A stretch of 64,000 nt of DNA, from NCBI RefSeq assembly GCF_964194025.1, contig NC_134474.1, positions 43,152,001 through 43,216,000 on the forward strand, written 5' to 3'. Source of the stretch: Convolutriloba macropyga (Eukaryota). Of the stretch, positions 25,313 to 58,926 are shown one piece after another; the stretch's first letter is position 1, and each line of letters starts with the position of its first letter. Both the position numbers and the translations under genes were made by a program. The notes under the pieces were generated by a model. That model was given only the letters and a program-made list of their open reading frames with translations. It had not been told where the DNA came from and did no database searches.

Positions 25313-25704
25313 TGTGATACCTGGTGGTATATTTATTCATTTTATTTAATTGTTGCAGTAAAATTTATTTGATGCCTTTAAATTAGTTCAATTACTTTCA
25401 CCTTCAATAACTTTGTTCAATTTGTTTACCTTATGATTTCATTCCATTGTCTGATAGTTTCCCGCTTCGTGATCAGACATGTCTGATCACGTATTCACGT
25501 TGTTCCCAAGTGGCTCCAATCTGTTAAATATTTTCCTCCTAATTTATGCAACTCAATTCAGTTTGTAAAACTGTCTCTTGTTCTCCCGCTCCGCAAGTAA
25601 GCGAAACAAAAGTCAAAGTAGATCTCGCTTCGCGAATCGCTCATAAACATTCCGTCTGCACACCCGCAACGCGAATCACCACAGCAAAATAATAAAGTAC
25701 GACA
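25313..25704 (+). repeat. 5' LTR
   Basis: TGTGATAC...GTACGACA; AATAAA near the 3' end. Confidence 0.97.
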
Positions 25705-30737: not shown

Positions 30738-31585
30738 AAGAACGATCGGTAGAGTTAAATTTGGCTCGCAAAATTCACGGCAAAAGACGATCCAAGAAGA
30801 AACTTGAAGGTCTTTATGAGGTTCTCGACCCAGGATCGCACATCCTAAAAGTAAGCCCGACTACATCGACCATCAAGGAGCCGGGCAAACAAATTGTTAC
30901 CGTCCGCAATAGCGATATTGCCAAATTCGGCACCCAACAGGAGAGACAGACTCCATTAAAAGTATATGCTGAGAGACGCAGGCCACGTTCTGGGGAGAAA
31001 ACCGTCGAAGAGTTGATCCACAGCCACATTAAAGAGTTCACCCGAAAGCAAAAGGGTAATAAAAAGATGAAACATAGGAAGAGAGAGCCGGGCAGCGGAG
31101 TCTCTTCACAGCGCTCAAACATTTCTCGCGCGATGCGGGGGCGAGTTCCAAATTTGCCAAATTTTGCCGCAATCCGAAACGCACAACCTCCACTCGAGAT
31201 CAGCGAACCGACTACAAATGCGCCTACTGATCCACCCGCAACAGCATCTTCAAAACGATCTTCTGACCGTAATAGGCGAAGCCCGTCATATTATGGTTTC
31301 GAAACGTCATCTCCAGGATCAGACATCCTACCACCATCTAAACGACCCCGACGAGCGGGTGATGTCGAAAATTTTGCACCACCTGTCACCGTTGTCGAAT
31401 CGGTACAACAAATCCTGGAACTCCAACCCGAAGAGCAAAACGTGTCACCTCAGATTGGTTCTGTCTCGCCTCCCGCGGTACGAAATGTACCTTTGCTAGA
31501 GACGGACACCCCGACATTGGCTAGATCTATGACTGCTCTTGATGCAGAGGAACAAGATTATGAAAATGAAGATTGGACCTTGTAA
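30710..31585 (+). CDS. C-terminal continuation of integrase in the -1 frame (GPY/F-like motif plus basic, disordered tail)
   Basis: Frame is open from 30710 (TKAIRPIPLKERSVELNLARK...LEGLYEVL), overlapping the end of the main ORF; most simply a 1-nt deletion in this copy. Confidence 0.75.
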   Translation, partial: TKAIRPIPLKERSVELNLARKIHGKRRSKKKLEGLYEVLDPGSHILKVSPTTSTIKEPGKQIVTVRNSDIAKFGTQQERQTPLKVYAERRRPRSGEKTVEELIHSHIKEFTRKQKGNKKMKHRKREPGSGVSSQRSNISRAMRGRVPNLPNFAAIRNAQPPLEISEPTTNAPTDPPATASSKRSSDRNRRSPSYYGFETSSPGSDILPPSKRPRRAGDVENFAPPVTVVESVQQILELQPEEQNVSPQIGSVSPPAVRNVPLLETDTPTLARSMTALDAEEQDYENEDWTL

Positions 31586-31768
31586 AACTTGAAAACTAAA
31601 AAGACATTTTATATTGTATTAATCATCGTATTTTTAGTTATGATAACCAGCAAATATATTGATATTATCTATTTAACCGGGGACCTTGTATTAATTTGTA
31701 AATATTGTTATTATTAATTATCTCTGAAAAATTGTATATTACAATTATTCTTCTTGCTGTGAAGGGTA

Positions 31769-32160
31769 TGTGATACCTGGTGGTATATTTATTCATTTTA
31801 TTTAATCGTTGCAGTAAAATTTATTTGATGCCTTTAAATTAGTTCAATTACTTTCACCTTCACTAACTTTGTTCAATTTGTTTACCTTATGATTTCATTC
31901 CATTGTCTGATAGTTTCCCGCTTCGTGATCAGACATGTCTGATCACGTATTCACGTTGTTCCCAAGTGGCTCCAATCTGTTAAATTCATTCCTCCTAATT
32001 TTTGCAACTCAATTCAGTTTGTAAAACTGTCTCTTGTTCTCCCGCTCCGCAAGTAAGCGAAACAAAAGTTAAAGTAGATCTCGCTTCGCGAATCGCTCAT
32101 AAACATTCCGTCTGCATACCCGCAACGCGAATCACCACAGCAAAATAATAAAGTACGACA
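31769..32160 (+). repeat. 3' LTR
   Basis: Direct repeat of 25313-25704, preceded by GAAGGG. Confidence 0.97.
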
Positions 32161-33076
32161 ATCCTAACAAGAAAGTCTGATAGCAGTAACCAAATCAATT
32201 CATATCGAGTTACTGTTTTTAGGCAAAATTTAACTACAGCCTCCTCTGAAAGCACCCAAAAAGCAAAATTTTGTCACACAGGGAAACTTTTCTGGATAGA
32301 ATATGGACTAAGAGAAAATGGTTGCTATCTTAGAATAAACAAATATTCATAACTAATTACTTCCAAATACTTGTGTATAAAACAAATTGGAAAACAAGAC
32401 GAAAATTCGTTTCCTTTTTCATTGTTTTATAACTAAGCGTATAGATATTAAAACAAAGCACCTAAAAATTACCATTTTGTGCGACAAAAAAGTTGCAAAA
32501 GTTTAAAAATTCACCCTAAATAACGACAAACAATCTTTGTTTATTTATTACAAGTTCATCAACAATCCGCGTTAAAATTGTTTCATAACATATGCAAGTT
32601 ATAATCCTGATTTTTACAAAACTTTGAAAATTTGCACACGCCGAATAGTTATATTGAGCTCTAGTTCACTAAATTATACTTAAAAACTTGAGAAAATTGT
32701 GATTTCAATGAAGATTGACATTAATTTTTTGATCATTACTATTACACTTGGTCACAATATACGTAAAACTAATAGTTATAAAACAGATAAGCAAAAGCAA
32801 TATATGTTAATTCTCATTAAATTTGATAAAACAAACCTAATTTCAGCAAAACTTTAGAAGCTATCCGTACTCCAATTAGTGTTTTTGAAATAGGACCAAT
32901 TGTTTAAGCAAATTGTCTAAAACTTTTCTAAAATTCATAAAACTTTTGATCTTTTTCAAGCCTCAATTTCTTTTGATTAAACTTTTGTATTGTTTCCATT
33001 CGTTTATGTTATCTTTTTATATATAAACTTCCTTAAACAATACAAGTAATCATTGAACAAAAACCTTAAAATAAAA

Positions 33077-34370
33077 ATGGCGAACATTGTAGCATACCCA
33101 GACATTTCACTTGAGAAATTTACAAGCGTAGACCCAAGTGAGGACGTAGAAGAATTTCTAAGTTTACTAGAGCGGAAAATCGAATATTCGTTAGGAGTTA
33201 GACCAGGAGCAGGAGACGCTCAAAATGCATATGACGCACGCAGAAAAGCACTATTTGGCTCAGTCCTAAGAGGAACAGCAGCCCAATGGTTCGATTCTTC
33301 GCCGCCAGCAGAGCCATGGGAGGATGTTAAAACAGGTTTTTTAAATAGATTCACAGACGAGAATGACAAGTACAGAAAACGAATTGAGGTAGAAAACATT
33401 CGGTAGACAACCAGACGAGTTATAAAAAAGTTATGTACACAGACTAGCAAAAGCAGTGGAAAAAAGATGGCAGGACCCATTCAGAGACGTTCAAAGGCAA
33501 ACTAATTTTATGAAATTCTTATAAGAGGACTAACTCCTCCAGCACCTAAACAAAAAACGCATCAATTTTTGATAGAAACACCTCATTCAACATGGGAACC
33601 ACTTAGAAATTATGTGAGCACTAAAGATTTAGGTTTTGAAGTGAGTAGTGGTTTCAAAGGCACAGCTTCAAGCAGGATAGATAACAAAATAGAGATAGAT
33701 CGTATAAAATACCAGCTTCAAGAATTAGCAATTTTAATGAAAAAAAAAACAGAATTAGCGCAGCCCACAATCCAAATGAGCCTAGAAACGAGCAAAATCA
33801 CAGACGATTTTGCAAATTTTTTCAGAAAATCGGGTCAGACAATAGCATATTGTTCTGCGAACAGAGCCTTTCAAGAACAAAAAAGACAGCAACCTCAGCA
33901 AAGAGATAAGTTCAGAGATCTATCAAAGCCATAGAGGACGTCGTCCAAGAGAAGATAGTTATGAAAGGAATCAAAACAGATATTGACAGAACTACAGACC
34001 AAGAAACAGTTACTACAGCCAAGACAACCACAGACAATACTCTATTTATCCTAGATCTCAGAAAAATAATTTCAGAAATCGCCCACAAAGCTTTGAGAAT
34101 CAAAATCGGCGCTAGAGTATTAGATCCAGTGACCGTAGACCCCAGGACTACAGAAAATATTCAAGGGAACGACAATATGATCAAAACGATTTCCAAACAA
34201 GTTATCGTGAGTCGAACAGTCTATGACAGGATTATGGGAGAAGTAACAGTTCTAACCGAAATTCTAGAGATAACAGCAGAGAACGTAATTCAAACAGAGA
34301 TCAATTCAGAGATATTAAAGTTAACAGATTTTTTGTGGACGATCAACAAAAAGAAATTAATTTCAACTAG
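33077..34370 (+). pseudogene. gag of a large decayed Gypsy element
   Basis: MANIVAYPDISLEKF...DVEEFL...LRGTAAQWF...WEDVKTGFLNRF capsid-like motifs; decayed zinc knuckle near 33805-33855; R/N/Q-rich tail. Confidence 0.85.
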
Positions 34371-37300
34371 ACGAGGCTCCGTACAAAAATAAGAAGACAA
34401 ACATTTTTAATAACTGGTACATTTACGTCGTCGGAGACAGTAATAAACATAACGGCTCCGAATCATAGTTTCCAGTTGACACAGGAGCAACGTGTTTTTT
34501 AAAAAATTTTGATTTTTTTTACAAGAACTCAAAATCACTGATTGATGTTAAACTAATTGAATCTAAACCAAAAACAATTGCAGTTAACGGTGAACGATTA
34601 AAATTGTTAGGCTACATTCATGTTTCCGTCTCATTTGACATTGAAAGCAAAATTTACACAGATCTTAAATCATGGGTTTCATTGAAAAACGGTTGCGAAT
34701 TAAACATCCTTGGAATGGACTTTTGAATTTTGCAACAAAATCAATTGAATTCACAACGCCAAAAATGAACTTGAATTTTTATCCAAACGTTTCAATCACG
34801 CTTTCAAAATACCAAATGAAAAGTTATCCCTTTGTAAATAAATTTGAAAAAGTTGTGCTTAATAAATCTTTCGAGCTAACACCGAAATCTACTAGAGTTC
34901 TAACAATTACACCATCAAACCAATTTATCAAACAATGAATAACATTCATAATTGACAATCGCCTTCGAGACAAAGGTAAATACACATACAATGTCTGTTG
35001 CGTAAGGAAAGAAAAGTAATTACCAAAAATGCTTAACAAACCTGGTGATCGTAAAGTAACAAAAGAAAAATATTCAATAGGGTACACTTTGGAGATTTAT
35101 CAAAAATCACAAAAATACACACTGATTGATAAGGTTGCGTTCCTAGATGTCTTAACAGAAACCGAAACAGATTTCAATCACGTCTCTCATGTGACTGAAA
35201 AATGTTGAAAATACAATTCAGATGTTAGAAAATCCGAAATTAGACAAAAGAGATATCAAACAATAGTTGAAAAAAACTCTGGAAAAAATTACAAAAAAAA
35301 AGAATTTGCTGAACATCATGAGTTGGAAACAGACTTCAGTTAGGATCTAAAAGACTTAAAACCAAAAACAACAATATAAGGTGAAACTCGACCTCAACAA
35401 GTACCACTAGAAAAACTGGAACTATTTAGCAAATCAGACCGTGAGTTTCTCAAAGTTTTTGACTGCAGCCAATCAGACATTAACGATGCACAATAACTAG
35501 ATCTAATTAACTTCTTGCCAGAGACATGGACGTCTACTCTCAACATAAGTTTGACGTTGGCAAAATTAAGCAAGAATTTCTTGTAAAGCTTCTACCAAAT
35601 TCAACTTTGACTAAGCAAAGACCATCATGTGTACCATTGCATCACCAAGAAAAATTTGAATTTTTGTTACAACAGCTCTGTAAAGCTTGAACAATTCGAG
35701 AAATAAGAGACGACACCGAAACGGGATCGTCAATTATTAAGCCAGTAATCATCCTTCCTAAAGGAAACATAGTACCTAGTAATCGACGCCAGGTATCTAA
35801 ATTCAATAACCGACCTAAATAAATACTCATGGCCTCTAGAGCCAATAGGTTCTTTACTAACTATTTTGAAAGAAAACTACATCACTACAAATGGCTTATT
35901 CTCTGCATATAATTAAGTACCTCTAACGGACGAAACACAACAATTCACAAGTTTCGTAATAGGTTCAAAGCAATACACGTTTCAACGTGGTTTTTACGGA
36001 TTTTACGGACTACCAAATTTTTTCAGTAGGAAAATGACAATCCATTTTGCACCCTCAAAAAACTAGACAAGCCGTATATTGACGACACAATCATGCGAGC
36101 TCAGACAGCTGAGAAATGTACTCAATAATAAAAAAGTACCATCTTCTGCTACGCAAAGCAGGACTGAAAGCTCAGCCTGAGAAAACAAAATTCGTTTTGC
36201 GCAAAGTACAATTCTTAGGATATGTAGTAGGCAAAGACCGAATTCAACCGGTAAAGAAAAGAGTTGAAGATTTGAAAGCCTTAAAGACACCTGAAAATAA
36301 GCGAGATGTAATGCGAGTCCTACATTGTTTAGGATTCTACAGCAAGTACATTAAAAACCTTAATGTATACAGTAAGCCAGTTTACGATCTCATAAAAACC
36401 GAAACTACATTTGACTAGACAGATTAACAGGAAAGTTGCTCAGATAAATTAAGGATCGTATAAATGAAGATACAGTCTTAGCAATTCCAGACACAAAATA
36501 CCCCTCCCATGTTCATGTAGACGCATCATCAATTGGTGATGGTTCAATCTTAGTATAAGAATTTCCTACCGGAAAACGGACAGTCTCATTTAATTCTAGA
36601 GTTTACACAAAAGATGAGCAAAAAATACCAAAACAGCTAGAGAAGTTTGTGGTGTAATTTCTCCTCCACAAACGTATGATCATTACATAATAGGTTTTCC
36701 ACATCCAGTGTATCTCTACACAGATCACAAACTCCTACTGTATCTTTCGGGACGTAGAGGAAAAATAGCTCATCGTTTTTTCAGCTATCAGCTTGTCATT
36801 TCACAATTTCAAAACTTGACAAAAATCTGGACAGAAGGCAAAAACCTAGCTTTTCCAGACATTCTAAGTAGAAACGTCTCAATAAAAGACTTAGACAAAA
36901 ATCAACTTAAACACAAAAGATTCCCAAAGACATTAAGTTTTACGACGAGTCAGGCAACCAAGAAAAACATTTCGTGTTGCACGACAATTTAAAAGGGAAA
37001 GAAAAACAATTGCTATCCCAATCTGAAACAGACTTTTCTAGAAGTTTGAAAATTGAATTATGAAAAAGTACAATTTTTTCAGACAAACTAAAAACACAGC
37101 GATCGAATTTGTTCAACTTCGGAGATCCCAGAAACCGTCTTAAAAATAAAACGCAATAATTTACTATCGTGACAAATTTTCAGTTTTCACCGATTCTAAG
37201 CGAACAAGACGACAGCGAAAACTACTACTCGGAGTTGTCTTTAGAATTTGATGATAATTTAGACAAAGAGAAAGAGCAATTTCAGAAAGATTCTACAACA

Positions 37301-39427
37301 GAAGAAGACTCTTTGCTTAATTCTGTTGAATTGTCAGATTTTGAAATAAGTGACATGAGTCTCGAGCAAGCGTTGAAGCAAGCAAAGCAAACTTTGATAG
37401 AAAAGGAGGTGTTCACCTACCAAAACAATTTGTGAGAATAACGAAATTTCAGATCGAAAAGAACTCTCTCAGAAATTATCTAATTTTGCTAGAGATATCG
37501 ACTTGAACATAACACCAATCAGCCAGGAACAATTCAAAGACCCAGTCATTTAGAATGTCAGGCAAATTTTCGAATCAGGAGACAAAGATGAGAAAAACTT
37601 AAAGTTTCAACTATCAAAAGCCATGAAAACATACTTGAATAATTTTGAAAACATTTGCCTCATCAGAAACAATTTATATATTAAACAACCAACTGAAGCT
37701 CCAAACATTCAAAACATCAAAATCTGCACCATTATCACCCTTCTTAAAAATTTTTGAATTTGCTCACCAGTATTCAATTTCTGGACATTCTGGAAGAGAT
37801 AAAACATTGTCAAGAATTAAACACTCTTTTGTACTGGCCAGTTATTTGGAAATGGGTTTCTCACCTAAAAGCAAATTGTTTAGACTCTCAATAAAATAAG
37901 CAAAAACGCAAAGTCAACGGAGCACCACTTGAAAAATGGACTGTACTTTTTCCCTTCCACACGTTACATATAAATCACAAAGGTCCAATAAGTCCACCTT
38001 CAAAGGGAAATAAACATTGCTTAGTAGTAATTGTTTCTTTTTCCCGTTACAATTAGGTTTACCCAGTTCCATTAACATCAGCGAGTTAAACAATATCAGC
38101 ACTTTAGAAATTTCTTCTTACTATTGGTATCCAACAAAAACTTGTGTATGATAAAGGAACAGCTTTTATGAACCAAGAGTCCACAAGTTGGATTCATGAA
38201 GTTGGATTTACGCACGCTCATAGAACAGCATAATCTCCCTGGACCAACAAAAAATTGAGATCCAAAACAGGCACCTTGGCGCGCACTTCCAAATATTTTT
38301 TGAGCGAGCTAATCGTAATTGGAACAACTTAGCGCCAAAATTTTGCGTTTGCTCACAACACCACAGCAAACACTACGAAAAGATTAACACCCTATGAGAT
38401 TGTTTTTGTTCATGAGCCTCAAATTCCACTTTATCTAAAATTAGGATTATTAAGGGCTTCCGACTTAACTTGTTACTTAGAATTCTGCAAGGATTTACCA
38501 CTCCACAAACATTCGGAACAAAGTAGCAAGAACGATCAGATAGACAAACTGCTAAAACCAAAATTAAGTAGTTCACTGCTTGCTGGTTAGAATTAATTTA
38601 AACAAATTTACAAAACTGCATAAAGCAGAAGCCTTAAAACAAATGAAAAGCACATCAAAACAGCAACAAACAAAAACTAGGTAAGCCTTTGGACATTGGA
38701 CAGCTCGTTTTAATGGAAAATCATTCAATTGAAGACGGAAAATCCAAAAAGTTACACGAACTGAGAACAGGGCCATACGAAGTTACGAAAAAGTTGACAG
38801 ATGTAAATTACGAAATAGAACTTGTATCAAACAAAAATGTCAAAAAAGTTGCTCATAGAAAACACCTAATTGAGTACTTCCCAATTGAAAGCGCAATTTC
38901 AGAATTAGTAGTTGATTATGGTTTAAGAAATGAAAACTTCCAACCATTCTACCAGAATTTAATGAATAAACAATTTGAAAAACTAAATAGGCCAGTAGCT
39001 AAATTATCTTTTTAACAACCTTTCACTGAAATTGAATTTTTTCAAGTAGACAATTTTACAAGTAATTCAGATTATACACAAAATGAAAATCAACATGAGA
39101 AAACGCTGGAAGATAACAAAACCACAACACAATAACAAAACCGGACTGAAGTTTTCAGAAATGTTCTTCAACTACTTTTTTAGACAACACACAAATACTT
39201 AATAATCGTAGCGTAGTAGAAATAGAAGTTTTACCCCATACCCTGAACGTATTTGTTTTGCAGATCCACCTGACATTAGAGTCAGCCCTGTTAGAACCCA
39301 ACCCCGAATACAGTCACCCGAAGCAAATCCAACTTCTTCGGATGATCAACGTTCATCTCGAATAGATCGTCGATATTCGGGACGATTGAAAAAACTTACT
39401 AAACTCTATCATGCGGGATTTACTTAA
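34370..39427 (+). pseudogene. pol (PR-RT-RNase H-IN) of the decayed Gypsy element, many stops and frameshifts
   Basis: VDTGA near 34476; YIDD near 36075; KVQFLGYVV; VHVDASS; YTDHK; HSGRDKT; VYDKGTAF; TPYEIVF; TGPYEVTKKLTDVNYEI. Confidence 0.92.
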
Positions 39428-39578
39428 ATCTCACTTTTTATCTTTATTTTAAAAGTTCAAATGATCGGAAAATTAAATGCCGAGACCTTTTGTATTACCT
39501 TCCTCCAGACTTACTCTTAGCTTTCTGACACTACGAAAAAAACCAAAAACTCAGTCAATCACTAACAAAAAAGTTATT

Positions 39579-41909
39579 ATGAGAAACAATAACTTCTTTT
39601 CTAAATCTTTAACTAATTTGTTGGTCTTTATTATTGTATCCTTTTGTAGACCCTTAGTTAAGAACGAGTTGGATGACAGTTCCCCTACATTAAAAGTTGT
39701 TCATTAAGACTGTTCAGTACTGAAAAAAAGCAAATTTATTCTTTAAATCAAGTAGCCCAATGCAAAATTAAACCTGAAAATTTTAAAGTTGTACCGGCAA
39801 CGGTTACACTGTATCAAAGATCATGCAAAACAAAGGTTGAGGCAGTAATGTGTCGAGTAAAATTGCAAGCTTTAAGCTGGCACCATGGCTTTTTATCGCA
39901 CTCTTCCTTAGCATATGACCAAGTTTCCCTTACAACTGACGTAATAGTAACGCCAGTGAACTGAAGAATTGTTAACAAAACAGGAAAAAGTTCAATAACA
40001 GAGTACGATGGAACTTATAAGTTAAACAATTTAAGCGAAGTTTTAAAACACCAACATACACACGGTTGTCTGAGCGAGGACGATCACTTAGAAGATAACA
40101 CAGATTGCTCTTCATCAGGAGAAGAAAAACTTTTTTCCTTTGAAACACAAATACAAAGAGTTGAACTTGAAGTTGATCAGGAAACCAAATTAGTTTTTAC
40201 CCCGTTAGGATTGAAAGTTCGATGCCAACTAAAAAAAAGTTGTGAACCAACATCACCAGACCCATTCGCTGACTCTTGGGATGCGCCACAAAATTTCGTT
40301 GTTACAGAACTTTTAACACAAGTAGCAAAAAAGAAAAAATTCACAAAAGGAGCAGATCCACCACAAAACTACATCATAAGCACACAGTACATTCAAAATG
40401 ACATTTATCTTTTGCAAAATAACATGAAAACAGATCACACGCGAGACATAAAACTGAGGAAAAATAAAGAAAGCCATTATATTCGTGGAAAGGCTAGTTC
40501 TTTGTTTATTACAAACTTTTATTTGTTTCTTTTGCCGGAGGATTTGATATGAATACGGGAAAAACCGTAATTTTGCAGAATAATGATAATAATTACAAAA
40601 TGCAGGTCGGCACCGACAAAACAATAAGATTGAACGGTTTTTACGAGACACCTAAAAACGAGCTAGTTGGTAACCAACATTTTGGAAATCATAGACAAAA
40701 TTTTGAAAATGTTGGAAAATGCACTATCGATTAAGATGCTCATAATTGTATTGAAATTAATTTCACGATGTAAAAAGTCTATTTTGATTTAGAACAGTCT
40801 GACTTCCTTATTTTACAAAATACAAGCGAGCTCAGACAAATTCAAATCCAAATGATTAATGCATTGTCTTACAAAAACAATAGGTTGGCCGGATACATTT
40901 TAACCGGAAATCTTTCAATGTTCTTAGAAATTGAAGGTGATATAAAGTAGGTCACCTGTATCCGTGTCCAAAGTAAATTTCGCCGCTTAAAGTACTTGAT
41001 TGCTGTTACGACCAGTTTCCCCTCTTTTATGACAGAAAAACTATGTTTGTTAATCCTATTACGCGCCAAACATTTCCATTTGCTAATGAAATAGATTGTA
41101 CAGATACTTTCAAAAACTTGTTTTAACTTGATTTTGATAACACTAATTCTTGATATCAGTTGATGCCGGCGCTAGTTCCTTTTAAACCGCGCGCTGTTTT
41201 TGCTCCACGACAATTTGGTTATATTAAAAAAAATCCCTGATTGTGTTTCTCGTCTTGCAGGTACATACAAAGTAAACCAGTTGAAAGATTATTGGAGACC
41301 AATTTTGCACAAATCTGCTTCTCATTCAGCTTTGAAAAAGTTTTCTCAAACAGTGCTTCAAAACGCACACATAGACAGTAGTCAACTTGATATCTATCGC
41401 GCGCAGTTCTCAATAATCAGTTATAATTAAATTCAATGTTGGCACCATCTGTTTTCCTTGATCATTTTAAAAAGACTTTTGGACAAATTGGCAATTACGT
41501 AGAAAAAGCCGGAATTTTGTTTGCATATTTCATGTTAATCAAGTTTTAGATCGATGTTGTAATTTTTATTCTAAGAGCTTTTGAGATAGAAAAACTGTCA
41601 AAAAACACTATTGGTTTTTGGAAAACATTACTAGGAGCCTCGTGCAATTTGTTTCTACTTTCTATTGTAGCATCAATTCATCAAGCACCTAAAGTTGATG
41701 AAAACTCTGATAACAATACAAACAATGAACCAAGCAGAAGTCGTTATCTCAAGTATACACCAGATAATAACATTTATCATGACAACAGTCCAACAGAATT
41801 GTCACCACTGACTGCCCCCGAAGAACCATTAGCTCTTGTGCTAGAAATACCACATATTTTCCCTAAAAATCTTACTGATCAAGAAGTAATTGCATTTGCT
41901 CCCCCATAA
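39579..41909 (+). pseudogene. env-like gene: chuvirus-type (class III) fusion glycoprotein, decayed
   Basis: Signal peptide (LTNLLVFIIVSFC); across frameshifts H*DCS...YSLNQVAQC...VTLYQ...VMCRVK...WHHGFLSHSS; ELRQIQ...LAGYILTGN...CYDQFP...TMFVNPITRQTFPFANEIDC; C-terminal hydrophobic AGILF...LIKF.IDVVIFILR...LLGASCNLFLL. Confidence 0.75.
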
Positions 41910-41989
41910 CTCAATCATCCAATTTCTCTTTTTATACCTAACTAGTCTCACCTAATACACTCTTATTAGCCTAAACTAACTGTTTCAGC

Positions 41990-43450
41990 ATTAAGAGCTG
42001 AGACGCAAAACTTTTTTGATCTTTTTTCACGATTTTTATGGAATCATATAATACTCTTTTATACCTGCTTATGAAAACTTAGTGCGTTTAAAAGTTCGCG
42101 CACCTAAACTTTCTGACATAATAGGCATACTAATTTTTACATTTCACGAAAAATTTTATACCCTTAAGGAATTTTTATATGATTGTGAATATGGTCTGGG
42201 CAACTTAGGAAACCACATCCACTTTCTATTATAAAATGATGCATCTCAATCTTCAAAAATCCCATCGGGAACAGCTTATATTTACTTGCTAATTTTTTTC
42301 ATTTTAACTATTTTTGCCTTATTTCTTAAACATTTCAGAGAACCGAACGTATTCATTGTAAATTACAAATACTTTGAGCTCCACCAACACGAAATTAACG
42401 TTTTGGAATGTATTTTTATTAACAAGGCAGTTTAGTAAAATCTTATCAAATCAATCGATCCTTCACAGTTCACTTCCCCTATCAAATAAACCCCATTTTA
42501 AAAGTTCTGTTTGATTTTGTTGCCTCTTGGGACGAAGGTTCTATCACCATATCAGCTTTTTCCACTTATTGTAATTTTTCTGATGCTTTTTGAGCAAAAA
42601 TTGGATCAAATTTACCTTGGTTTTTTCAACTGGTGATGACTAATGTACAGATCAGATCCCTTATCCATAAATTGAATAATATTGTGTATATTATCATTGG
42701 ACTATCCACCACCCACATTTCTTTCATAATTTATATTCGCCAACCCCACAGCATTTTGAATCAATTTTTAAATTTAAAAATTAACCACCACCAAATACTT
42801 GAAACTGCCTTGTTCCGATATTTTTATTCTAACGCCGAACTGACAATTAGGTACCCGTTTACATTATCTTATATCATGTTTTTCTTATTAAATAAAGAAC
42901 TAGTCGAAGTTTGTAGTTTCGAAAAAAAACCTTCAAAATAGAACCTAGCCTTCAAGCTTTCATTTTAGTGCTCCTGAAGAACGTCCAAACCCAAGAGCAA
43001 TCAACCCTTTCAGTATATCCCACTTCTGTTTATTGGAACTATTTTTTTATCTCCTCGAAAGTTAGGCCAAATGTGCCAAAAGTGTCTCCACAGAAAACAA
43101 TAAACTATTTTTAAAATGATATTCCCATTTGAACCAGCATTTAGTCAGAATAACTGACAATAAACGTACTTTCACTGAAGCTGATAACCACACTTCCCAT
43201 TCTCTAGAAATTAACTATATAAATATCGGCACTAAGGAAATATAATTAAAATACTTACTCCTCTATCACTCCACTGGAATTTCTTTTTAAAAACTGAAAA
43301 GTCCCTTAAGTTAAAATTGAGTCAAATAAACCCCCCGGCCAACATCATCAACGAAACTATTTACCCTAACCGTGACTTCTGAAATGGAAAACTATTTCTG
43401 CTTCAAATTAGTTTTCCCCCTACAAAATTCGTCACGCCTCCTATTGTTGA
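41990..43450 (+). pseudogene. Decayed accessory ORF(s) downstream of env, unknown product
   Basis: Same-strand protein-like frames broken by stops (IPAYENLVRLKVRAPKLSDIIG; FDFVASWDEGSITISAFSTYC; QMCQKCLH). Confidence 0.4.
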
Positions 43451-43460
43451 ATACCGTAAT

Positions 43461-43790
43461 GAATGCCCCATTTGTCTAAAGAGTACTTCCTGTTGGAAAA
43501 AATTGCACCCTTCTGAAGGAGACTAACACTCCCACTTAGTTTGCCGCGATTGTAGAAATAAATTTTTCCTCCACTCTCCCCAACCCAATTGCCCCATTTG
43601 CCTCCGCCAAATTTATAAACTATCCCTTAATTTTTTTTTCGATGCTTTTATTATCGCCTGTAACCAAATAAAGAACTCCACTCACCCTCACATAAAATGT
43701 CACCAGAACCTTGGACATTTTGTGTTTGTTGCCTGTGCGAAAGATAAGAATATTTGCCCCACCTGCTTGAAACAGATTAACCCCCACGAC
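43461..43790 (+). pseudogene. Tandem RING-finger coding remnant
   Basis: ECPICLKSTSCWKKLHPSEGD*HSHLVCRDCRNKFFLHSPQPNCPICLRQI, then KCHQNLGHFVFVACAKDKNICPTCLKQI. Confidence 0.75.
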
Positions 43791-44330
43791 GTTTGGTCAG
43801 AGAGTTCTTGAACGATGCAGTCTATTCATATCCCGATTTTTGTTCTTCTCTCTTTTATCATCACCCTTTCTGTTGGCCTCCTCATAGAAGTCCTACTCCT
43901 TCTCCTCCTCTAACGACCCTTCAACACAAACAAGTATATGCTGCAATACAAAAAAAAACCAGCTGCGCGGGCCGTCGCACGGAAGGGAGTCACGAGGTCG
44001 GATAATGGATTTAGTCAGTTAAATCTGAAACAATCTGATCTACAACTCTTACACAAATATTTTTTGGATTAACAGGATATTCCTATTTTAAGAACGGAGA
44101 TTAACTTCCGAATTTCGTTTCCTTCAAATGTTTCTTTTCTTTCTTTCTACCCAGGTGGGAGCTTCGTAAAATTGATTCAGCACGTAATGTGTGATTGCAT
44201 TCTTGTACTCAAAGAGTATGAAATTTTTGGTACGATAAACCGTACGATGGTTTTGGCTTCAAAAGTTTATATTTCATCTTAAATGTTTTTAGATGTTTAT
44301 AATCACATAAGATGACCAAAAGAGAACTAG

Positions 44331-45272
44331 AAGATATCCAGCTGCCCACAGAGCACTATGAACCCGTGAACAACTTGATGACAGACCTTCTCCCATTGAC
44401 AAAGAAATCCTGAGCAATCCATCCTCGCCAACTTGGCAACAACAAGAACGACAATCACAAACAGCGTCATCTACAAAACAACAGCAAACCCACCAACCCG
44501 AACAACAATTGCAGGAAACAATTAAATCACAGCCTTTTCGACCTTTGCCCAAAAACCCATTAGATGGTGGTTTACCGAAACTAAAATTCTTCCCACTGAA
44601 ATATGCTCGCCTGGAAATCCAAAGACTAAGAGAGATGCTTCCACTTGACCAGAACCCGAAGTTTTTAACTTCTCTAGGTTGCTCACTAACAGCTGAATAC
44701 AACCATTTGCGCCTCCCAGAAATGACAGTGATCCAAATCGTCAAAACCAATACCAAAATCCAAGTACCAACAGAATCCCTGACAGTGATTCCGAACATTT
44801 TCCTTGTACCTACCGTAAGGTTTTGGAGACTTACGAATAGAACCGATCAGGATCGGAAATACGAAAAAGAGAAAAAGGTTCTGAACACTCGTGTTGAAAT
44901 ACCATTCGAGCAAATAACAGCATTTCCAAGCAGTGATTCATCACAACCGGAGACTATTTTGAACGATCACCTCATTGTTGAAAATTCCAACTTCCGGCGT
45001 CAGCTTTGAGATTCAGAGTCCAACATTGCCGAAATACAGAGCAAACTCGACCGATTGACAATTTCAAAACAAACTGCCGTCACAAAAAGGAGGACCTGAG
45101 AATGCAATTAGTGATCTCATCACAAACTCTGAAGATCAGAGATCGTCAACAACAAGAGTCTTTACAGAAAGCAAATTAAATAATAGAATCAAATAAGCTT
45201 CTCGGACACCAGCTCAAGGAACTGAAAGATATACAGAAAGTCTTTCCAGCAAAACTTGACAAAGACAATTAA
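44331..45272 (+). pseudogene. Decayed accessory ORF: Q-rich N-terminus and C-terminal coiled coil
   Basis: Includes ORF 44509..45009 and continues through a stop into EDLRMQLVISSQTLKIRDRQQQ...LKELKDIQKV. Confidence 0.5.
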
Positions 45273-45296
45273 ATTTTCATATTTTTATGTTCTTTT

Positions 45297-46154
45297 NNNN
45301 NNNNNNNNNNNNNNNNNNNNNNNNNNNNNNNNNNNNNNNNNNNNNNNNNNNNNNNNNNNNNNNNNNNNNNNNNNNNNNNNNNNNNNNNNNNNNNNNNNNN
45401 NNNNNNNNNNNNNNNNNNNNNNNNNNNNNNNNNNNNNNNNNNNNNNNNNNNNNNNNNNNNNNNNNNNNNNNNNNNNNNNNNNNNNNNNNNNNNNNNNNNN
45501 NNNNNNNNNNNNNNNNNNNNNNNNNNNNNNNNNNNNNNNNNNNNNNNNNNNNNNNNNNNNNNNNNNNNNNNNNNNNNNNNNNNNNNNNNNNNNNNNNNNN
45601 NNNNNNNNNNNNNNNNNNNNNNNNNNNNNNNNNNNNNNNNNNNNNNNNNNNNNNNNNNNNNNNNNNNNNNNNNNNNNNNNNNNNNNNNNNNNNNNNNNNN
45701 NNNNNNNNNNNNNNNNNNNNNNNNNNNNNNNNNNNNNNNNNNNNNNNNNNNNNNNNNNNNNNNNNNNNNNNNNNNNNNNNNNNNNNNNNNNNNNNNNNNN
45801 NNNNNNNNNNNNNNNNNNNNNNNNNNNNNNNNNNNNNNNNNNNNNNNNNNNNNNNNNNNNNNNNNNNNNNNNNNNNNNNNNNNNNNNNNNNNNNNNNNNN
45901 NNNNNNNNNNNNNNNNNNNNNNNNNNNNNNNNNNNNNNNNNNNNNNNNNNNNNNNNNNNNNNNNNNNNNNNNNNNNNNNNNNNNNNNNNNNNNNNNNNNN
46001 NNNNNNNNNNNNNNNNNNNNNNNNNNNNNNNNNNNNNNNNNNNNNNNNNNNNNNNNNNNNNNNNNNNNNNNNNNNNNNNNNNNNNNNNNNNNNNNNNNNN
46101 NNNNNNNNNNNNNNNNNNNNNNNNNNNNNNNNNNNNNNNNNNNNNNNNNNNNNN
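45297..46154. other. Assembly gap
   Basis: Run of N. Confidence 1.
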
Positions 46155-47590
46155 TGCCCAAGTAGTATAGTCGAGACCTTAGGATAGTTTCAGGGTTTTG
46201 AATGAGGGTTGCAGCTACCACAGCTGCACATAATCTTCCAGCTGCATGTACTCAGCTCGTTGTACTGTTCCAGGAAGAAGTTTTTATACAAATAATTTTG
46301 GCATGTTTAGATCCTCCAAAAATCCCAATTTTATCGAGAAGATGTTGACTAACTTGGCAGTTCGATGGAAGAAAATTTCACTACACTTGTTTCTGTTAAT
46401 TTTAGGGATTTCGAGTTCATTTTGTGCATCTTGTCTTGTTCTTTTACTCTCTTTGAGATTCGATTCGTCAGTGGTATTGTAGTCATACCTGTTTCTTAAC
46501 AGATCACGCAAAAAACAAAACATCATGAAGTTCAATGTACGTTGATAAGGGTAGTAGATCATATTTGATTAGTCGTGTTTTATAGTCAACATTTACTCCG
46601 AAGAACCACTTTGTGGCTGTTCTTTGATTTTTTTTTCGTTTTTTAGAGGCAAGTAGTTGTCAAATGAGAGAATAGAGAACTATATACTGGAATAAGGACA
46701 ACGTATTCATTGTAAGCGTTCAACTTAGCTTGCAGCGTGACGTTCTTGGTCACGTTTCTTTTGAGTTGATACAATACTCTCAGGGCCTTGCTGGTTCTTA
46801 AGTCAACGTTGCTCGACCATGTTAAATCACTGCTCACTCACACACCAAGATCTCTCTGCTCTTTTACGATTGGTAACTAAACTCAGAACATATCAGTTTT
46901 CAGGTCCCCTTTGAGCAAAAGCAATGAGCTTTTTTTGCATTCAGTATCAGTGTGTTTTGCCAGCACCAGTTATGTAGTCTGTCTCGATTTTTCTCAAGGT
47001 CGTGTTGGTTTGTAATTACAACCTTAACATCATCTGCAATGCCGTGACACGGATGTGTGACACAATTCGGGAAGTCATTGATAAAAATCAGAAGCAGAAC
47101 TGGTCCCAACACTGAACCTTGCGGTATATCACTAGAAACCACTAGAAACTGCTTTAAGGGATGACCTAAATGTGTTAATCTGTACGAATTTTCGCCTGTT
47201 TGTGAGATAGGAGTGAAGTAGCTTAAAAAAGTTTCCTCCAACACCAAGACGAGCAAGCTTTTCGTGGAGTCTTTCATGACAGACTTTATCGAAGGCCTTA
47301 GAGAAATCAAGATATAGTACTTCCAATTGTTTTTCAGATTCTGAGTCCTTCGGTTTGTAAATTTTAACAAAGAAACTCAAAAGTTGAAGTACTGTAGATT
47401 GATGTTTTCTGAAACCAAATTGACTGGAGTGCAGAGTATCTTTTGCAAAGAGATCGAGTGAATCAAAGATTAGTTTTCAAAAATTTTCGAGATAGAACAC
47501 AGTAGGCTGATGGCACGGTAACATGAGACGTCAGTTTTATCAATATCTTTGAAGAAAGGGGTTACCTTGCTAATCTTCCATTCATCTGGC
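46155..47590 (-). mobile_element. CR1-type LINE, 3' part of ORF2 (RT and C-terminus), decayed
   Basis: YLDFSKAFDKVCH, IPQGSVLGPVL, IADD, SSDLTWSSNV, FFHRTAKLVN, terminal TCSWKIMCSCGSC. Confidence 0.9.
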
Positions 47591-48627
47591 TTCAAAAGTT
47601 TATATTTCATCTGAAATGTTTTTATATGTTTATAATCACATAAGGTGACCAAAAGACAACTAGAAGATATCCAGCTGCCCACAGAGCACTATGAACCCGT
47701 GAACAACTTGATGACAGACCTTCTCCCATTGACAAAGAAATCCTGAGCAATCCATCCTCGCCAACTTGGCAACAACAAGAACGACAATCACAAACAGCGT
47801 CATCTACAAAACAACAACAAACCCACCAATCCGAACAACAGTTGCAGGAAACAATTAAATCACAGCCTTTTCGACCTTTGCCCAAAAACCCATTAGATGG
47901 TGGTTTACCGAAAGTAAAATTCTTCCCCCTGAAATATGCTCGCCTGGAAATCCAAAGACTAAGAGAGATGCTTCCACTTGACCAGAACCCGAAGTTTTTA
48001 ACTTCTCTAGATTGCTCACTAACAGCTGAGTACAACCATTTCGCCTCCCAGAAATGACAGTGATCCAAATCGTCAAAACGAATACCAAAATCCAAGTACC
48101 AACAGAATCCCTGACAGTGATTCCGAACATGTTCCTGATACCTACCTAAGGTTTTGGAGACTTAGGAATAGAACCGATCAGGATCGGAAATATGAAAAAG
48201 AGAACAAGGTTCTGAACACTCGTGTTGAAATACCATGCGAGCAAATAACTGCATTTCCAAGCAGTGATTCATCACAACCGGAGACTATTTTGAACGATCA
48301 CCTCATTGTTGAAAATTCCAATTTCCGGCGTCAGCTTTGAGATTCAGAGTCCAATATTGCCGAAATACAGAGCAAACTCGACCGGTTGACAATTTCAAAA
48401 CAAACTGCCGTCACAAAAAGGAGGACCTGAGAATGCAATTAGTGATCTCATCACAAACTCTGAAGATCAGAGATCGTCAACAACAAGAGTTTTTACAGAA
48501 AGCAAATCAAATAATAGAATCAAATAAGCTTCTCGGACACCAGCTCAAGGAATTAAAAGATTTACAGAAAGTCTTTCCAGCAAAACTTGACAAAGACAAT
48601 TAAATTTTCATATTTTTATGTTCTTTT
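47587..48627 (+). repeat. Highly similar duplicate of 44254-45296
   Basis: Collinear 1.04-kb copy with scattered substitutions and 1-nt indels; both copies end at the same base before an N gap. Confidence 0.95.
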
Positions 48628-48940: not shown

Positions 48941-51309
48941 TGGTCTTCTAGTTTGTGGCGCAACTAGTCGTATCTCAGCCTTCAAACACCAAAGCAATGA
49001 GTACATTCAACCATGGCCCCGAGTCCCGGGTAAGGGGTGCTAAGAATCTCCCGAGCAACCAACTCAGAATTGCAACTTTAAAAGTCAGAACACTGACCCA
49101 AGCCGGATCTTTAGAGGCTTTGAAAATGGATCTGGCGCAATACAAGTTGGATATTCTGGGAGTGCAGGAGACGAGATTGCAGGAGCAATAAATTGATCTC
49201 GGAGACCACAAGCTCTACCTGTCTGACTCGTGGTTGTCTGGTGTAAAGTCGAGACAAGGAGGAGTGGGCGTTGCTGTAAAGAAGTCATTGATAAACAGCA
49301 TCGTAGAACAAGTGGCTCTAAGTGAACGTATTTGCTACGTCAAATTCGCGGCTCGGAGGAGAGCCAATCTAGCTGTTGTTGTCTGCTACGCACCTACGAA
49401 TGAAGCTAGTCTCCAAGAGAAGGATGAAGGATTTGTTTTGGAGTCAACTTTCAGACCTAGTTTCCAGCTTCAAACATAGGGAGCGTATTTGTGTCATCGG
49501 TGACCTCAATGCAGAGCCTGGACACCAGTTGAATGACACCATGAGCTGCAGAGGGCCGTTTGGAATGGGTGAAGAAAATGAAAACTCGGAAAAGTTGTTA
49601 TCATTTTGCACTTCACACAAATTGCTCGTAGGTGGTACATGGTTCCAGCATCGACAAGTGCATCGGTACACCTACAACCCTCCCGATCCGAGTTGTCGAA
49701 AAAAGATGCTGGATCACATTCTGTTTGCAGAGAGATACAGAGGATGTCTGACGAATGTGAGGACCAGAAGAGGGAAAACCACAATTACCGATCATGAACT
49801 GGTCATTGCGGAAGTATCTATGAAACTTTTGTCTAAAAAGCCATGTTTCACGCCCAGAATCAGTTCTGCAAAGCTGCAAGATGAAACAACGCGTGACTTA
49901 TTCACGCAGGAGGTCAAGTTACATCTTGATAAGAGCGGCGATTTCGAGAATACAGAGCAGTCTTGGGACAATTTTCGAAAAGCCCTGAACCAAGCAGCAG
50001 TGAAATGCCTCCTTCCGGACAAGCGAGTGAACAAACCTTGGATTTCTCCAGATTCTCTGGAACTTATCCGGAAACGAGCTGATCTACAGTTGAAGAAACA
50101 CAGCAGCGCGGTGGCGTTGTTAGAGTTCACAAACTGCTGTAAGGAAGTCAGAAAAGCTCTACGTGCAGACAAACGGGCATGGCTTGAACGCAAAGGCCAA
50201 GAAGTGCAGAGCTTATCGGACAGAGGCAACTTGAAGGAGGTTTTTGGGGCATCACAGCAGATTTGCCGAAACTGGAGTCCCCAGTTGACCAAATTAGTTT
50301 CAAGCACTGGCGTCAACTTACGGACGAAAGAGGAACGACTTGAACGCTGGACGGAACATTTTAGTCAACTCCTGAATCCCTCCCTCAACATCCAGTTGCA
50401 GTACGAGATTGGATCCCGAAGAAGCAGCTGAAAGCTTGTCGATTGACCTGAGCCCAATTCGTTTTGAGGAAGTGCTTGAAGCTGTCCGCAGGTTGAAGAA
50501 TGGCAAGGCAAGTGGACCCGATAACATTTCCTGTGAGATGTTGAAAGCACACAAGGGTATTGTCGAGTGGCTCTGGGACATCATAGATAAGTGTTGGTCG
50601 ACGGAAGTTCTGCCCGATGACTGGAAGGTAGCAGAAATTGTCCCATTATACAAGAGTGAAGGAAAGAGGTCAGAGTGTTCGAACCACCGAGGGATCTCTC
50701 TATTGTCAGTACTAGGCAAAGTGTTCGCTTCCGTTATTCTCAATCGATGCAAAGATTCAGTGGATCGCGTCTTAAGGGAAGAGCAGTGCCGCTTCAGAAA
50801 AAGCAGAGGATGCGCCGATCAACTCTTTGCCCTGCGTCAAATAATAGAGAAATCAATGGCGTTTCAATTGGATATTAGCTTTTGTTTCATAGACTTTCGA
50901 GCGGCATTCGATTCTGTCGATCGTGAGCAGATGTACCAGATAATGAAACACTATGGTCTTCCGCAAAAAGTGATAAACACCATAAGAAACAGCTATGATG
51001 GATTCAAATGTCGAGTCAAAGCCGAAGGTGAGAAAGGACGCTTATTTGATGTCAGAACGGGCGTTAGGCAGGGTGATGTGTGGTCCCCAATCCTATTCGG
51101 CCTTGTCATCAACTACATTTTGGCTAACTCGGTGCATGGAGGATTAGACATTGGGAGATTGGTGGCTGACTTAGATTTTGCTGATGATGTTGCTCTCGTG
51201 GGGGTCCCAGACAGTGAGGTGCAAGAAAACCTACATCGAATCGAGGCCCTTGCGGAAGCCGCTGGTCTGAAGATTAATGTGGCCAAAACAAAGAATATGG
51301 GCGTAGAAA
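48862..51309 (+). mobile_element. RTE-clade LINE: APE endonuclease plus RT in one frameshifted ORF, 3' truncated
   Basis: RIATLKVRTL, LGVQETR, CYAPTNE, IGDLNA, LDHIL, TDHELV; KASGPDNI, SNHRGISLLS, FIDFRAAFDSVDR, GVRQGDVWSP, LDFADD; no ORF1. Confidence 0.9.
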
Positions 51310-53335
51310 AATTAGTTTTCAAAGATTTTCGAGATAGAACACAGTAGGCTGACGGCACGGTAACATGATACGTCAGTTTTGTCAATATCTTTGAATAAAG
51401 GTATCACCTTGCTAATCTTCCATTCATCTGGATAGGTTACTTTGTTATGTAGTCTGTCTCGATTTTTCTCAAGGTCGTGTTGGTTTGTAATTACAACCTT
51501 AAAGTCATCTGCAAAGCCGTGACACGGATTTGTGACACAATTAGGCAAGTCATTAATAAAAATCAGAAGCAGAATTGGTCCCAACACTGAACCTTGCGGT
51601 GTACCACTAGAAACCACTAGAAACTGCTTTAAGGGATGACCCAGATGTGTTAATCTGTACGAATTGTCGCCTGTTTGTGAGATAGGAGTGAAGTAGCTTA
51701 AAAAAGTTTCCTCCAACACCAAGACGAGCAAGCTTTTCGTGGAGTCTTTCATGACAGACTTTATCGAAAGCCTTAGAGAAATCAAGATATAGTACTGCCA
51801 AATGTTTTTGGGATTCTGAGTCCTTCGGTTTGTAAATTTTAACAAGGAAAATCAAAAGTTGAAGTACTGTAGATCGATGTTTTTTGAAACCAAAGTGACT
51901 GGAGTGCAGATTATCTTTTGCAAAGAGATCGAGTGAATCAAAGATTAGTTTTCAAAGATTTTCGAGATAGAACACAGTAGGTTGATGGCACGGTAACATG
52001 AGACGTCAGTTTTATCAATATCTTTGAAGAAAGGGGTCACCTTGCTAATCTTCCATTCATCTGGATAGGTGCCTTTGTTATGTACTCTGTCTCGATTTTT
52101 CTCAAGGTCGTGTTGGTTTGTAATTACAACCCTAAAGTCATCTGCAAAGCCGTGACACGGATGTGTGACACAATTCGGCAAGCCATTGATAAAAATCAGA
52201 AGCAGAAGTGGTCCCAACACTGAAAATTAAGCTATACCACTAGAAACCACTAGCAACTGCTTTAAGGGATGACCTAGATGTGTTAATCTGTACGAGTTGT
52301 CGCCTGTTTGTGAGATAGGAATGAAGTAGCTAAAAAAGTTTCCTCCAACACCAAGACGAGCAAGCTTTTGTGGAGTCTTTCATGACAGACTTGATCGATG
52401 GCCTTAGAAAAATTAAGATATGGTACTGCCAAACGTTTTTCAGATTCTGAGTCCATCGGTTTGTAAATTTTATCAAGGAAAATCAAAAGTTGAAGTACTG
52501 TAGATCGATGTTTTCTGAAACCAAATTGACTGGAGTGGAGAATATGTTTTGCAAAGAGATCTAGTGACTCAAAGATTTGTTTTCAAAGATTTTTGAGATA
52601 GAACACAGTAGGCTGACGGCACGGTAAAATGAGACGTCAATTTTATCAATATCTTTGACGAAAAGGGTCACCTTGCTAATCTTCCATTCATCTGGATAGG
52701 TGCCTTTGTTATGTAGTCTGTCTCGATTTTTCTTAAGGTCGTGTTGGTTTGTAATTACAACCTGAAAGTCATCTGCCGTGACACGGATGTGTGACACGAT
52801 TCGGCAAGTCGTTGACAAAATCAGAAGCAGAAGTGGTCCCAACACTGAACCTTGCGGTATACCACTAGAAACCACTAGAAACTGCTTTAAAGGATGGCCT
52901 AGATGTGTTAATTTGTACGAATTGTCGCCTGTTTGTGACATAGGAGTGAAGTAGCTAAAAAAACTTCCTCCAACACCAAGACGAGCAAGCTTTTGTGGAG
53001 TCTTTCATGACAGATTTGATCGAGGGCAATAGAAAAATTAAGATATAGTACTGCCAAATGTTTTTCAGATTCTGAGTCCATCGGTTTGTAAATTTTATCA
53101 AGGAAAATCAAAAGTTGAAGTACTGTAGATCGATGTTTTCTGAAACCAAATTGACTGGAGTGGAGAATATGTTTTGCAAAGAGATCCAGTGAATCAAAGA
53201 TTAGTTTTCAAAGATTTTTGAGATAGAACACAGTCTGCTGATGGCACGGTAACATGAGACGTCAGTTTTATCAATATCTTTGAAGAAAGGGTCCCCTTGC
53301 TAATTTTCCGTTCATCTGGATAGGTGCCTTTGTTG
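51310..53335 (-). repeat. Tandem amplification of an approximately 630-bp CR1 RT segment (3 full copies plus 1 partial)
   Basis: Unit runs KGTYPDEWK...PQGSVLGP...ADD...RDRLHN and rejoins KGTYPDEWK at about 52710, 52080 and 51447. Confidence 0.92.
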
Positions 53336-57484: not shown

Positions 57485-57787
57485 ATGATTCCAAAATTAT
57501 CTGATTTACTTCTGGATAACACACAAGATTTGGATAATAATACCACCTACCCAATGAATTGTGTTCTGAAAATTAATCAAGAACTTTGTACTTTGTTATC
57601 AATTACATTCAACAAGGTTCTTTTTGTAATTACAATTATTTTTTCTCGCGATTTATTGAACGAAGAAATTATCTTTATTCATTCCCTTGATAAACCATCT
57701 TTCCTCTATCTTGCAATGTACTTTACAAACACAGAAATTATTCCTATCGACGATTTGGATCTCCAATATCTCCTCTTGCACAACTAA
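57485..57787 (+). CDS. Small ORF upstream of gag, unknown product
   Basis: Intact 100-aa frame with AAAATG context, ending 14 nt before the gag ATG. Confidence 0.45.
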   Translation: MIPKLSDLLLDNTQDLDNNTTYPMNCVLKINQELCTLLSITFNKVLFVITIIFSRDLLNEEIIFIHSLDKPSFLYLAMYFTNTEIIPIDDLDLQYLLLHN

Positions 57788-57801
57788 AACCTGAAAGCAA
57801 A

Positions 57802-58926
57802 ATGACGGACGTAGCAACGATGGCTAACGCCATCACAACAGCAATTCAAACTGGGTTGGCCGCAACACAGTCATCACAATCTGTTATTTTAAGTCCGTTT
57901 GAAGGAAAAGATACGGATGATTTCCGGACTTTCAAGGAACAGATTACAAGCTCGGTTGCCCTTGCTAATGTTCCAGAGGCATCAAAATTGGACTATCTAA
58001 AATTGCATTTGTCAGGTGGCGCTCTTGCTTATTATCTGGAACTTCCAAATACGTCCAGGAACACATTTGACAACGCCATCGGATCCTTGGAAACACGATA
58101 CTTGAGTCCTAACCGCATTGAACTCTTCAAACTCAAATTTCAAGAACGTAAGTATAATCAATCTCGAGAGTCAGCAGAAGATTATCTTACGGATATTACA
58201 CGTTTAGCCAACATTGCTTTTCCGGATGCAACAGGCGTTAACAGATCAGCTGAACGTACCCGCCGCATTCGAGATGCATTCATCAGTGGAATGCCAAATT
58301 CAATTAGACTGAAACTTTTGCTTGAACCTGACAATAAAACCGTTCAAGAATTATGCACATTTGTTTCAAAAAGACAAGCATTGCAAACCACCTTACCAGA
58401 TGAAGACGCCACAACTACAGCTTTCAACAACGTCGCTCCAGCTTCATCTCAGATGTCTGATGCATTGAATTCAATAGTAAATACCGAAATAGGAAATAAG
58501 GAATTGGAAATAAGGAATTGATTAGAAATAGGAAATAAGGAATTGATTAGAACACAGAAAGAAATGGGAAAGCAAATGCAACACATGAGCTCTGCTTTCG
58601 ACAGAAATCAGAACATCCGTGGTAATCGCCCATTTAATAACAATCGGGGCCATACGAGAGGGTATCAGCGCCCATCATTCAATCAGCCCAATACAAACAA
58701 TAATTTTGTCCGGGGTAACAATAATTATAGAGGGCAGTATACAAGCAACGGATATACAAGGGGGAGATACAATCAGATTCAAGGACGAAACAGAGGTTAT
58801 TTCAGAAATGTATTCTGTAATAACTGTGGTCAACCTGGTCACAAACGAGTTGATTGCTGGTATAAACCACAACCAGAACGAGGAACAAACATACCATTTG
58901 ACAAATATATTCCTCCAAAAAACTAA
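57802..58926 (+). pseudogene. gag of the third Gypsy element, broken by a short local duplication at about 58487-58550
   Basis: PFEGKD...LHLSGGALAYY...ESAEDYL capsid motifs; RG/N-rich region; CNNCGQPGHKRVDC zinc knuckle. Confidence 0.92.
58917..58923 (+). promoter_or_regulatory. -1 ribosomal frameshift slippery site A AAA AAC
   Basis: Heptamer sits directly before the gag stop; the -1 frame is open and in frame with pol ORF 58950. Confidence 0.8.

Follow-up and report, generated by a model that had tools for sequence, protein, structure and literature searches.

Invertebrate gypsy elements that bear an env gene are usually taken to be three-gene elements. Such elements with a gB-type (class III) env have been described by Chary and Hayashi (PMC13524379). 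In that source, the words "RING," "accessory," and "zinc" are absent from the main text, and "RING," "zinc finger," and "accessory" are absent from seven supplementary files. The giant planarian gypsy element Burro/GYPSM1 combines a mononegaviral-like env with MATH, BIR, and an AIR1 motif that is called a RING Zn-finger (PMC6431247). Extra ORFs in LTR elements include the ORF3s of rotifer elements (PMC5408684; "RING" does not occur in the rotifer paper) and an AlkB ORF in orchids (PMC9289625). CERV of Cer1 was considered as a precedent and set aside, being a different protein with a C4 loop that forms a ring-shaped multimer (PMC10309623). Among viruses, arenavirus Z unites a myristoylation signal, a flexible arm, a RING, and late domains (PMC3509680), and the C2H2C4 order of RING ligands has been described as unique to Mdm2/Mdm4 (PMC6372010). 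A search by titles and the beginnings of abstracts, with subscription journals and Repbase Reports lying outside it, returned no description of a RING accessory gene in LTR elements.

The locus described here lies in a stretch of 64,000 nucleotides from Convolutriloba macropyga (the window), which consists of gypsy elements, a pair of LINE-like ORFs, and tandem repeats, interrupted by three N gaps, and in which no tRNA genes were found. The window contains a decayed Ty3/gypsy element with gag, pol (RNase H before integrase), and env in this order, the env encoding a class III fusion glycoprotein, as is characteristic of env-bearing Ty3/gypsy elements. A RING gene lies 1.5 kb downstream of env. 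The features are as follows.

32252..44351, forward strand: span with similar cover by diverged copies, RING gene included (edges are bin edges)
33077..34450, forward strand: decayed gag (right edge approximate; Retrotrans_gag E = 0.009, below cut-off)
34450..39015, forward strand: decayed pol, RNase H being followed by the integrase domains (zinc finger, core, and SH3-like C terminus); its left edge is approximate
39579..41906, forward strand: decayed class III env (PF24664 Monjiviricetes_fusion, E = 1e-8, 34 bits against a cut-off of 27)
43384..43811, forward strand: decayed tandem-RING gene, putatively accessory (tblastn with the open-frame copy P0012)
43464..43601, forward strand: unit 1, C2H2C4 RING, C-x2-C-x10-H-x8-H-x2-C-x2-C-x12-C-x2-C (8 of 8 ligands; RING fold matches)
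43644..43766, forward strand: unit 2, C2H2C4 RING-like (6 of 8 ligands; profile match to unit 1; weak fold match)
43815..43913, forward strand: 32-aa hydrophobic ORF directly after the RING stop
44362-45009: ORF

The gag product starts with Met-Ala and has a capsid-like match within about its first 60–115 residues. Pfam matches in pol are spread over two frames (RT_RNaseH_2, Integrase_H2C2, rve, Integrase_p58_C, and SH3_Tf2-1), and the RT itself has no Pfam match in the broken frames of pol. A 778-aa relative, P0172, maps onto the env span, 39579–41906, in four pieces. No terminal repeat for the env-bearing element was found between 41900–48627 and 20000–33100, the ends being disturbed by a younger element and by N gaps. 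Directly upstream lies a younger gypsy element (25313–32160, forward strand) with an open frame of 1696 codons, 392-nt LTRs that are 98% alike, and a 5-bp target duplication. Elsewhere in the window are a third gypsy element (57694–63625, forward strand; gag-pol interrupted by a few stops), frames for a LINE-like endonuclease and RT together with an about 630-bp repeat in four copies (49373–51347, forward strand; 46969–47589; 51307–53334), and a 140-nt unit that recurs in nested direct and inverted orientation, in a MITE- or foldback-like arrangement (19735–21627).

Aligned by tblastn, the window copy of the RING gene is 62.5% identical to P0012 over 144 columns (43386–43805), and the N terminus of P0012 maps to 43384, in a frame that differs from that of the rest of the gene. 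Between 43384 and 43811, the second codon is substituted, the frame shifts near 43438, a stop interrupts the frame at 43524–43526, and the linker is rearranged near 43630–43660. This copy is dead, damaged at several places, and incapable of the function proposed below. An earlier reading of this DNA, made from the sequence only, had noted two Cys/His units with one in-frame stop at 43461–43790; the two units and the stop are indeed there, in frame +3, but the gene begins upstream of that interval, at 43384, in another frame.

Of the 16 zinc ligands of its family, the window copy retains 14, ligands 1 and 5 of unit 2 being lost. The third ligand of the first finger had been read as His rather than Cys. 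It is a His, but not that of the H-x-H string to which this role had been given: the true third ligand of unit 1 lies at 43506, a His located eight residues ahead of ligand 4. All 14 open-frame copies in alignment A2 read P-P-H here, with Pro in place of the first His of H-x-H, so that this His is, judged from these copies, a private change of the window copy. The His of the G-H pair noted earlier in unit 2 is not kept across subfamilies, and the conserved His residues of this unit are those at 43689 and 43701. The six frames of the window hold a single instance of the RING-type pattern, whereas 200 triplet shuffles gave none, and the family profile matches the window only at 43392–43799 (E = 7e-35; next best, E = 0.18); by pattern and family profile, the six frames contain no second RING. 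Pfam RING models give 14.8–16.4 bits for the window copy and 17.7–18.5 bits for P0012, against a cut-off of 27 bits. The matches of the window reading, likewise below cut-off, are to Prok-RING_4 (E = 0.009) and zf-C3HC4_3 (E = 0.026), the latter also matching 9 of 18 family members at E up to 0.05 (best, 3.4e-6), and the sole solved-structure match of the window reading is the TRIM32 RING (E = 0.009). A UBC/RWD-like domain upstream of unit 1, to which the frame +3 reading had pointed, was rejected; it is an out-of-frame reading of the RING gene's own start and has no Pfam match.

Searching with the window reading yielded nine clusters, all of unnamed ENA proteins, the best of which is represented by a 144-aa protein with 62% identity and has 34 members. 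A search of 1.84 billion representatives gave 27 matches at E up to 0.001 and down to 27% identity, and a profile search, which took in protein lengths of 59–322 only, accepted 30 of 348 candidates. P0046 (532 aa, E = 1e-4), whose match is confined to unit 1 and which could not be mapped to the window, was excluded from all counts. The open-frame relatives form at least 10 subfamilies, with 34, 17, 14, 117, 101, 56, 12, 162, 6, and 5 members (524 in total). Motif counts refer to the 127 listed of these 524 members, singletons having been put into subfamilies by eye. The tenth subfamily is partial and was left out of the nine-subfamily comparisons, for which one member per complete subfamily was used.

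Two C2H2C4 patterns, amounting to 16 zinc ligands, are kept in all nine complete subfamilies at 25–49% pairwise identity, and both patterns are present in 100 of the 127 listed members; the relatives were found with the RING as query, so that the search favours ligand conservation. The order is not C3HC4, since ligands 3 and 4 are His in both units of all nine subfamilies. Protein size across the family is 124–170 aa. Profile comparison relates the two units to each other (probability 92%, E = 6e-7), a likeness which suggests that they arose by internal duplication. Conservation of the Cys/His ligands across copies had been set beforehand as the point on which the sequence-only reading would stand or fall, and the ligands of both units are conserved across the subfamilies. 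That reading had also considered an unrelated host pseudogene; no host-gene parent appeared among the relatives, which include no named or single-copy host gene, and no names were found among the family members read. No related RING loci with DNA context were found in the viral, metagenome, or genome contigs scanned. The double C2H2C4 RING family is real and apparently undescribed.

Linkage of the RING gene to env was assessed from equal sizes of the contigs bearing env and those bearing RING, and not from the DNA itself; for members on several contigs, only the longest contig entered the test. The window-type env cluster has 221 members, 15 of them listed, and a second env cluster has 47 members, 15 of them listed, with 14 distinct contig sizes. 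For the window type, 5 of the 15 listed env contigs match the 30 window-type RING contigs by size and none match subfamilies B–F. For the second cluster, 8 of the 14 contig sizes match RING subfamilies B/C and none match the window type. The absence of cross-pairing between env and RING types gives a Fisher p of 0.0008 on the matches, a value to be read as a guide only, the copies being related. All other, unrelated pairs gave only two size matches. One contig common to env and RING by size is 16,182 bp long. Subfamilies B and C (those of P0029 and P0034) share 7 of 14 contig sizes; one of these paralogues has a Met-Gly start and the other does not, and both pair with the second env. The shared contig sizes make it probable that two RING paralogues reside on the second-env element. 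Subfamilies D, E, and F found no partner among the two env clusters, and subfamilies G, H, and I sit on short contigs.

Repeat cover was examined with contigs of four runs (two samples, one study) from organism A, which may be the source of the window itself, aligned to the window at 80% likeness. In run X1, 3528 contigs aligned, 349 of them at 99% or more, and contigs identical to the window had a depth of 38–51. Between 32252 and 44351, the summed depth of the bins ranged from 1363 to 5009, with 2279 in that of the RING gene, against 425–440 beyond 44352. Cover of the RING bin is thus comparable to that of gag-pol-env and some five times that of the flank beyond 44352; summed contig depth does not equal copy number and is read only as the RING sharing the repeat status of the element. 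No contig piece among those listed spans env to RING. The sequence-only reading had placed the fingers in a retroelement as cargo, and this placement gains indirect support from the position after env, the multicopy, dispersed family, and the subfamily-specific co-occurrence with env. On these grounds, the RING gene appears to be accessory cargo of an envelope-bearing Ty3/gypsy element.

The peptide of the 32-aa hydrophobic ORF forms the tail of four of six frameshifted RING relatives that were checked, and this ORF could encode a small membrane protein. Short, decayed ORF-like stretches at 43117–43380 and 43938–44282 (forward strand) flank the RING gene and recur in P0008, P0154, P0157, and P0010; together with the RING gene, they may form a cluster of accessory ORFs after env. 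Further downstream, a 1.04-kb stretch is present twice (44254–45296 and 47587–48627, 97% identity), and both copies run up to an N gap. It holds a decayed ORF with no Pfam match, has a lower repeat cover than the element, and could be a duplicate created in assembly. In run X4, one contig links 45018 back to 43146. In the Env proteins, cytosolic-tail words (P0152 and P0153 clusters; 41550–41906 in the window) resemble ESCRT late domains, as motifs only. In the second env cluster, PSAP occurs in 9 and LYPxV in 8 of the 15 listed tails; in the window-type cluster, LYPxV occurs in 6 and LTAP in 5 of the 15 listed, the rest being mostly fragments.

The fold was predicted for P0012 with AlphaFold2 using 18 sequences (pLDDT 73.7; low confidence for the arm, residues 1–20). 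The best VIA-align match of this model is a GID ligase RING (Z = 5.9, rmsd 4.4, 69 aligned), followed by many RING/U-box domains (Z = 4–4.8), mostly over unit 1, the top RING/U-box rows covering about residues 20–90; Z-scores under 8 may reflect a common arrangement. Foldseek returned no match at E of 0.001 or better for the P0012 model, its leaders being TRAF5/6, TRIM32, and MDM2 in the PDB and ICP0 and PE38 among viral models. With these modest scores, unit 1 is predicted to fold as a RING. Unit 2 modeled alone (pLDDT 74.1) gave weak matches (Z = 2–2.8), with RING or U-box in the titles of 11 of 28 rows and a ribosomal chain in the top row, and Foldseek gave nothing under E = 0.38. The tandem RING of the sequence-only reading thus stands for unit 1, by fold, and for unit 2 by homology to unit 1 only. 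By sequence, the C-terminal half of unit 2 is nearest to the RINGs of XIAP/cIAP (E = 0.004–0.06). In the predicted model, the two His residues of unit 2 sit in a helix, as in a classical C2H2 finger, and unit 2 may, as an alternative to a RING, be a C2H2 finger followed by a C4 site.

In unit 1, all nine subfamilies have Ile or Val in the gap from ligand 1 to ligand 2, and Pro together with a hydrophobic residue in that from ligand 7 to ligand 8; these positions belong to the E2-binding face. At the position after ligand 8, Arg occurs in none and Lys in one of the nine subfamilies in unit 1; the corresponding numbers for unit 2 are one and two. An Arg at this position is the linchpin of RING ligases, and the active ligase XIAP has Tyr there (PMC12326332). 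Because XIAP works with Tyr, lack of the Arg weakens the case for an E3 ligase but is not decisive. A Met-Gly start is found in 88 of the 127 listed members and in 7 of 10 subfamilies. The starts of five of the ten fit MGxxxS/T, which is the usual myristoylation consensus; the sequence-only reading had not noticed this signal. Met-Gly is absent from three of ten subfamilies, including B and F, one of the three being partial, and the N-terminal arms of the subfamilies are otherwise poorly alignable.

Intact relatives most likely encode a membrane-tethered ubiquitin ligase or adaptor, a reading to which we give about an even chance, and E3 ligase activity of the double-RING protein is plausible. 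The protein would be N-myristoylated and placed on the cytosolic face of membranes, where unit 1 would bind an E2 and unit 2 would serve as a partner finger or substrate grip. Ubiquitin could then be put on targets near the membrane, either host surface or antiviral proteins or the element's own Env or Gag at the budding site, and this might aid particle formation or spread between cells. An anti-restriction role at membranes, anti-restriction being the second option of the sequence-only reading, is possible.

A matrix-like structural role, in which a RING protein separate from the others and myristoylated would tie the capsid to Env and the membrane and power budding without acting as a ligase, is a minority possibility. 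It shares with arenavirus Z the architecture of myristoylation signal, flexible arm, and RING (PMC3509680), and the feature-based likeness to Z is 0.88, a lead only; the missing Arg linchpin and an env of negative-strand RNA virus type agree with it, as does the Gag of the element, which has Met-Ala and a capsid-like match so near its start, gypsy Gag having been reported not to be myristoylated (PMC3383448). However, the late-domain motifs PT/SAP, PPxY, and YPxL occur in none of the 127 listed members, zf-P11 matches only one of 18 members (E = 0.042), there are two units of C2H2C4 order, subfamilies B and F are without Met-Gly, and errantiviral Gag can itself assemble extracellular particles (PMC3383448). 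In a fuller version, which we regard as rather unlikely, membrane targeting would have moved from Gag to a separate myristoylated double-RING matrix, possibly acquired, along with the class III env, from a negative-strand RNA virus, and the Env tail would supply the ESCRT-binding motifs. If true, a Z-like matrix in retroelements would amount to a hitherto undescribed design of retroviral particle.

Another rival is a non-catalytic zinc-finger adaptor or decoy that binds and blocks host E2s, RING partners of the MDM2 or IAP type, or signalling proteins at membranes. The lack of a linchpin, the C2H2C4 order as in MDM2/MDM4 (PMC6372010), the XIAP/cIAP-like C-terminal half of unit 2, and the two paralogues that share 7 of 14 contigs, as a heterodimer pair might, all fit; the MDM2 and IAP matches are weak, though, and the conserved E2-face residues of unit 1 are compatible with either role. 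We consider this adaptor or decoy unlikely. The sequence-only reading had named anti-silencing first, which here would mean a nuclear ligase directed against chromatin factors or those of the piRNA pathway. The fold neighbours do include ICP0 and other viral RING ligases, and subfamilies without Met-Gly could be soluble, but this role is very improbable because the myristoylation-type start of most subfamilies points to membranes rather than chromatin, and no chromatin-binding domain is among the Pfam matches of family members. That the gene is not cargo at all, but a host pseudogene or separate repeat beside the element by chance, accords with the lack of a closing LTR in the window and of a listed single record spanning env and RING, yet it is largely refuted already, and has hardly any probability left, given that each of two independent env groups pairs with RING subfamilies of its own, that cover is even along the element, and that the gene is intronless and multicopy, with relatives that include no such host gene.

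The double-RING family would represent accessory genes like those of complex retroviruses in gypsy elements, kept over deep divergence and duplicated in some elements. As the protein is small and has natural open-frame members, the ligase, adaptor, and matrix roles can be separated by ordinary biochemistry. Compared with known systems, the element resembles those of Chary and Hayashi (PMC13524379) in gag-pol-env order, class III env, and multicopy state, and differs in an accessory region of about 2.4 kb with a RING gene after env. Like Burro (PMC6431247), it is a gypsy element that joins a mononegaviral-like env to cargo tied to ubiquitination or apoptosis; the cargo of Burro lies mostly within a 4,873-aa polyprotein, whereas here a small ORF of its own, placed after env, encodes two C2H2C4 units behind a Met-Gly start. 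Arenavirus Z is likewise a small viral protein with an N-terminal myristoylation signal (here a motif only), a flexible arm, and a RING, but the present family has two fingers, no late domain, no significant sequence match to Z, and a class III env retrotransposon as its host. The RING ligases of large DNA viruses (ICP0, PE38, IE2, and those of iridoviruses and giant viruses) are viral RING proteins and the nearest in features (0.90) and fold (E = 0.009–0.1), in matches that cover one finger and of which none is significant. From MDM2/MDM4, the family differs in its two units, the longer His-His loop of unit 1, the missing Arg linchpin, and the absence by Pfam of p53-binding and other Mdm domains from proteins of 124–170 aa that consist of a short arm and two fingers. 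It shares with them weak MDM2 matches (sequence E of about 0.2, plus fold) and the C2H2C4 order, and a RING order called unique to Mdm proteins is now found in a second protein family.
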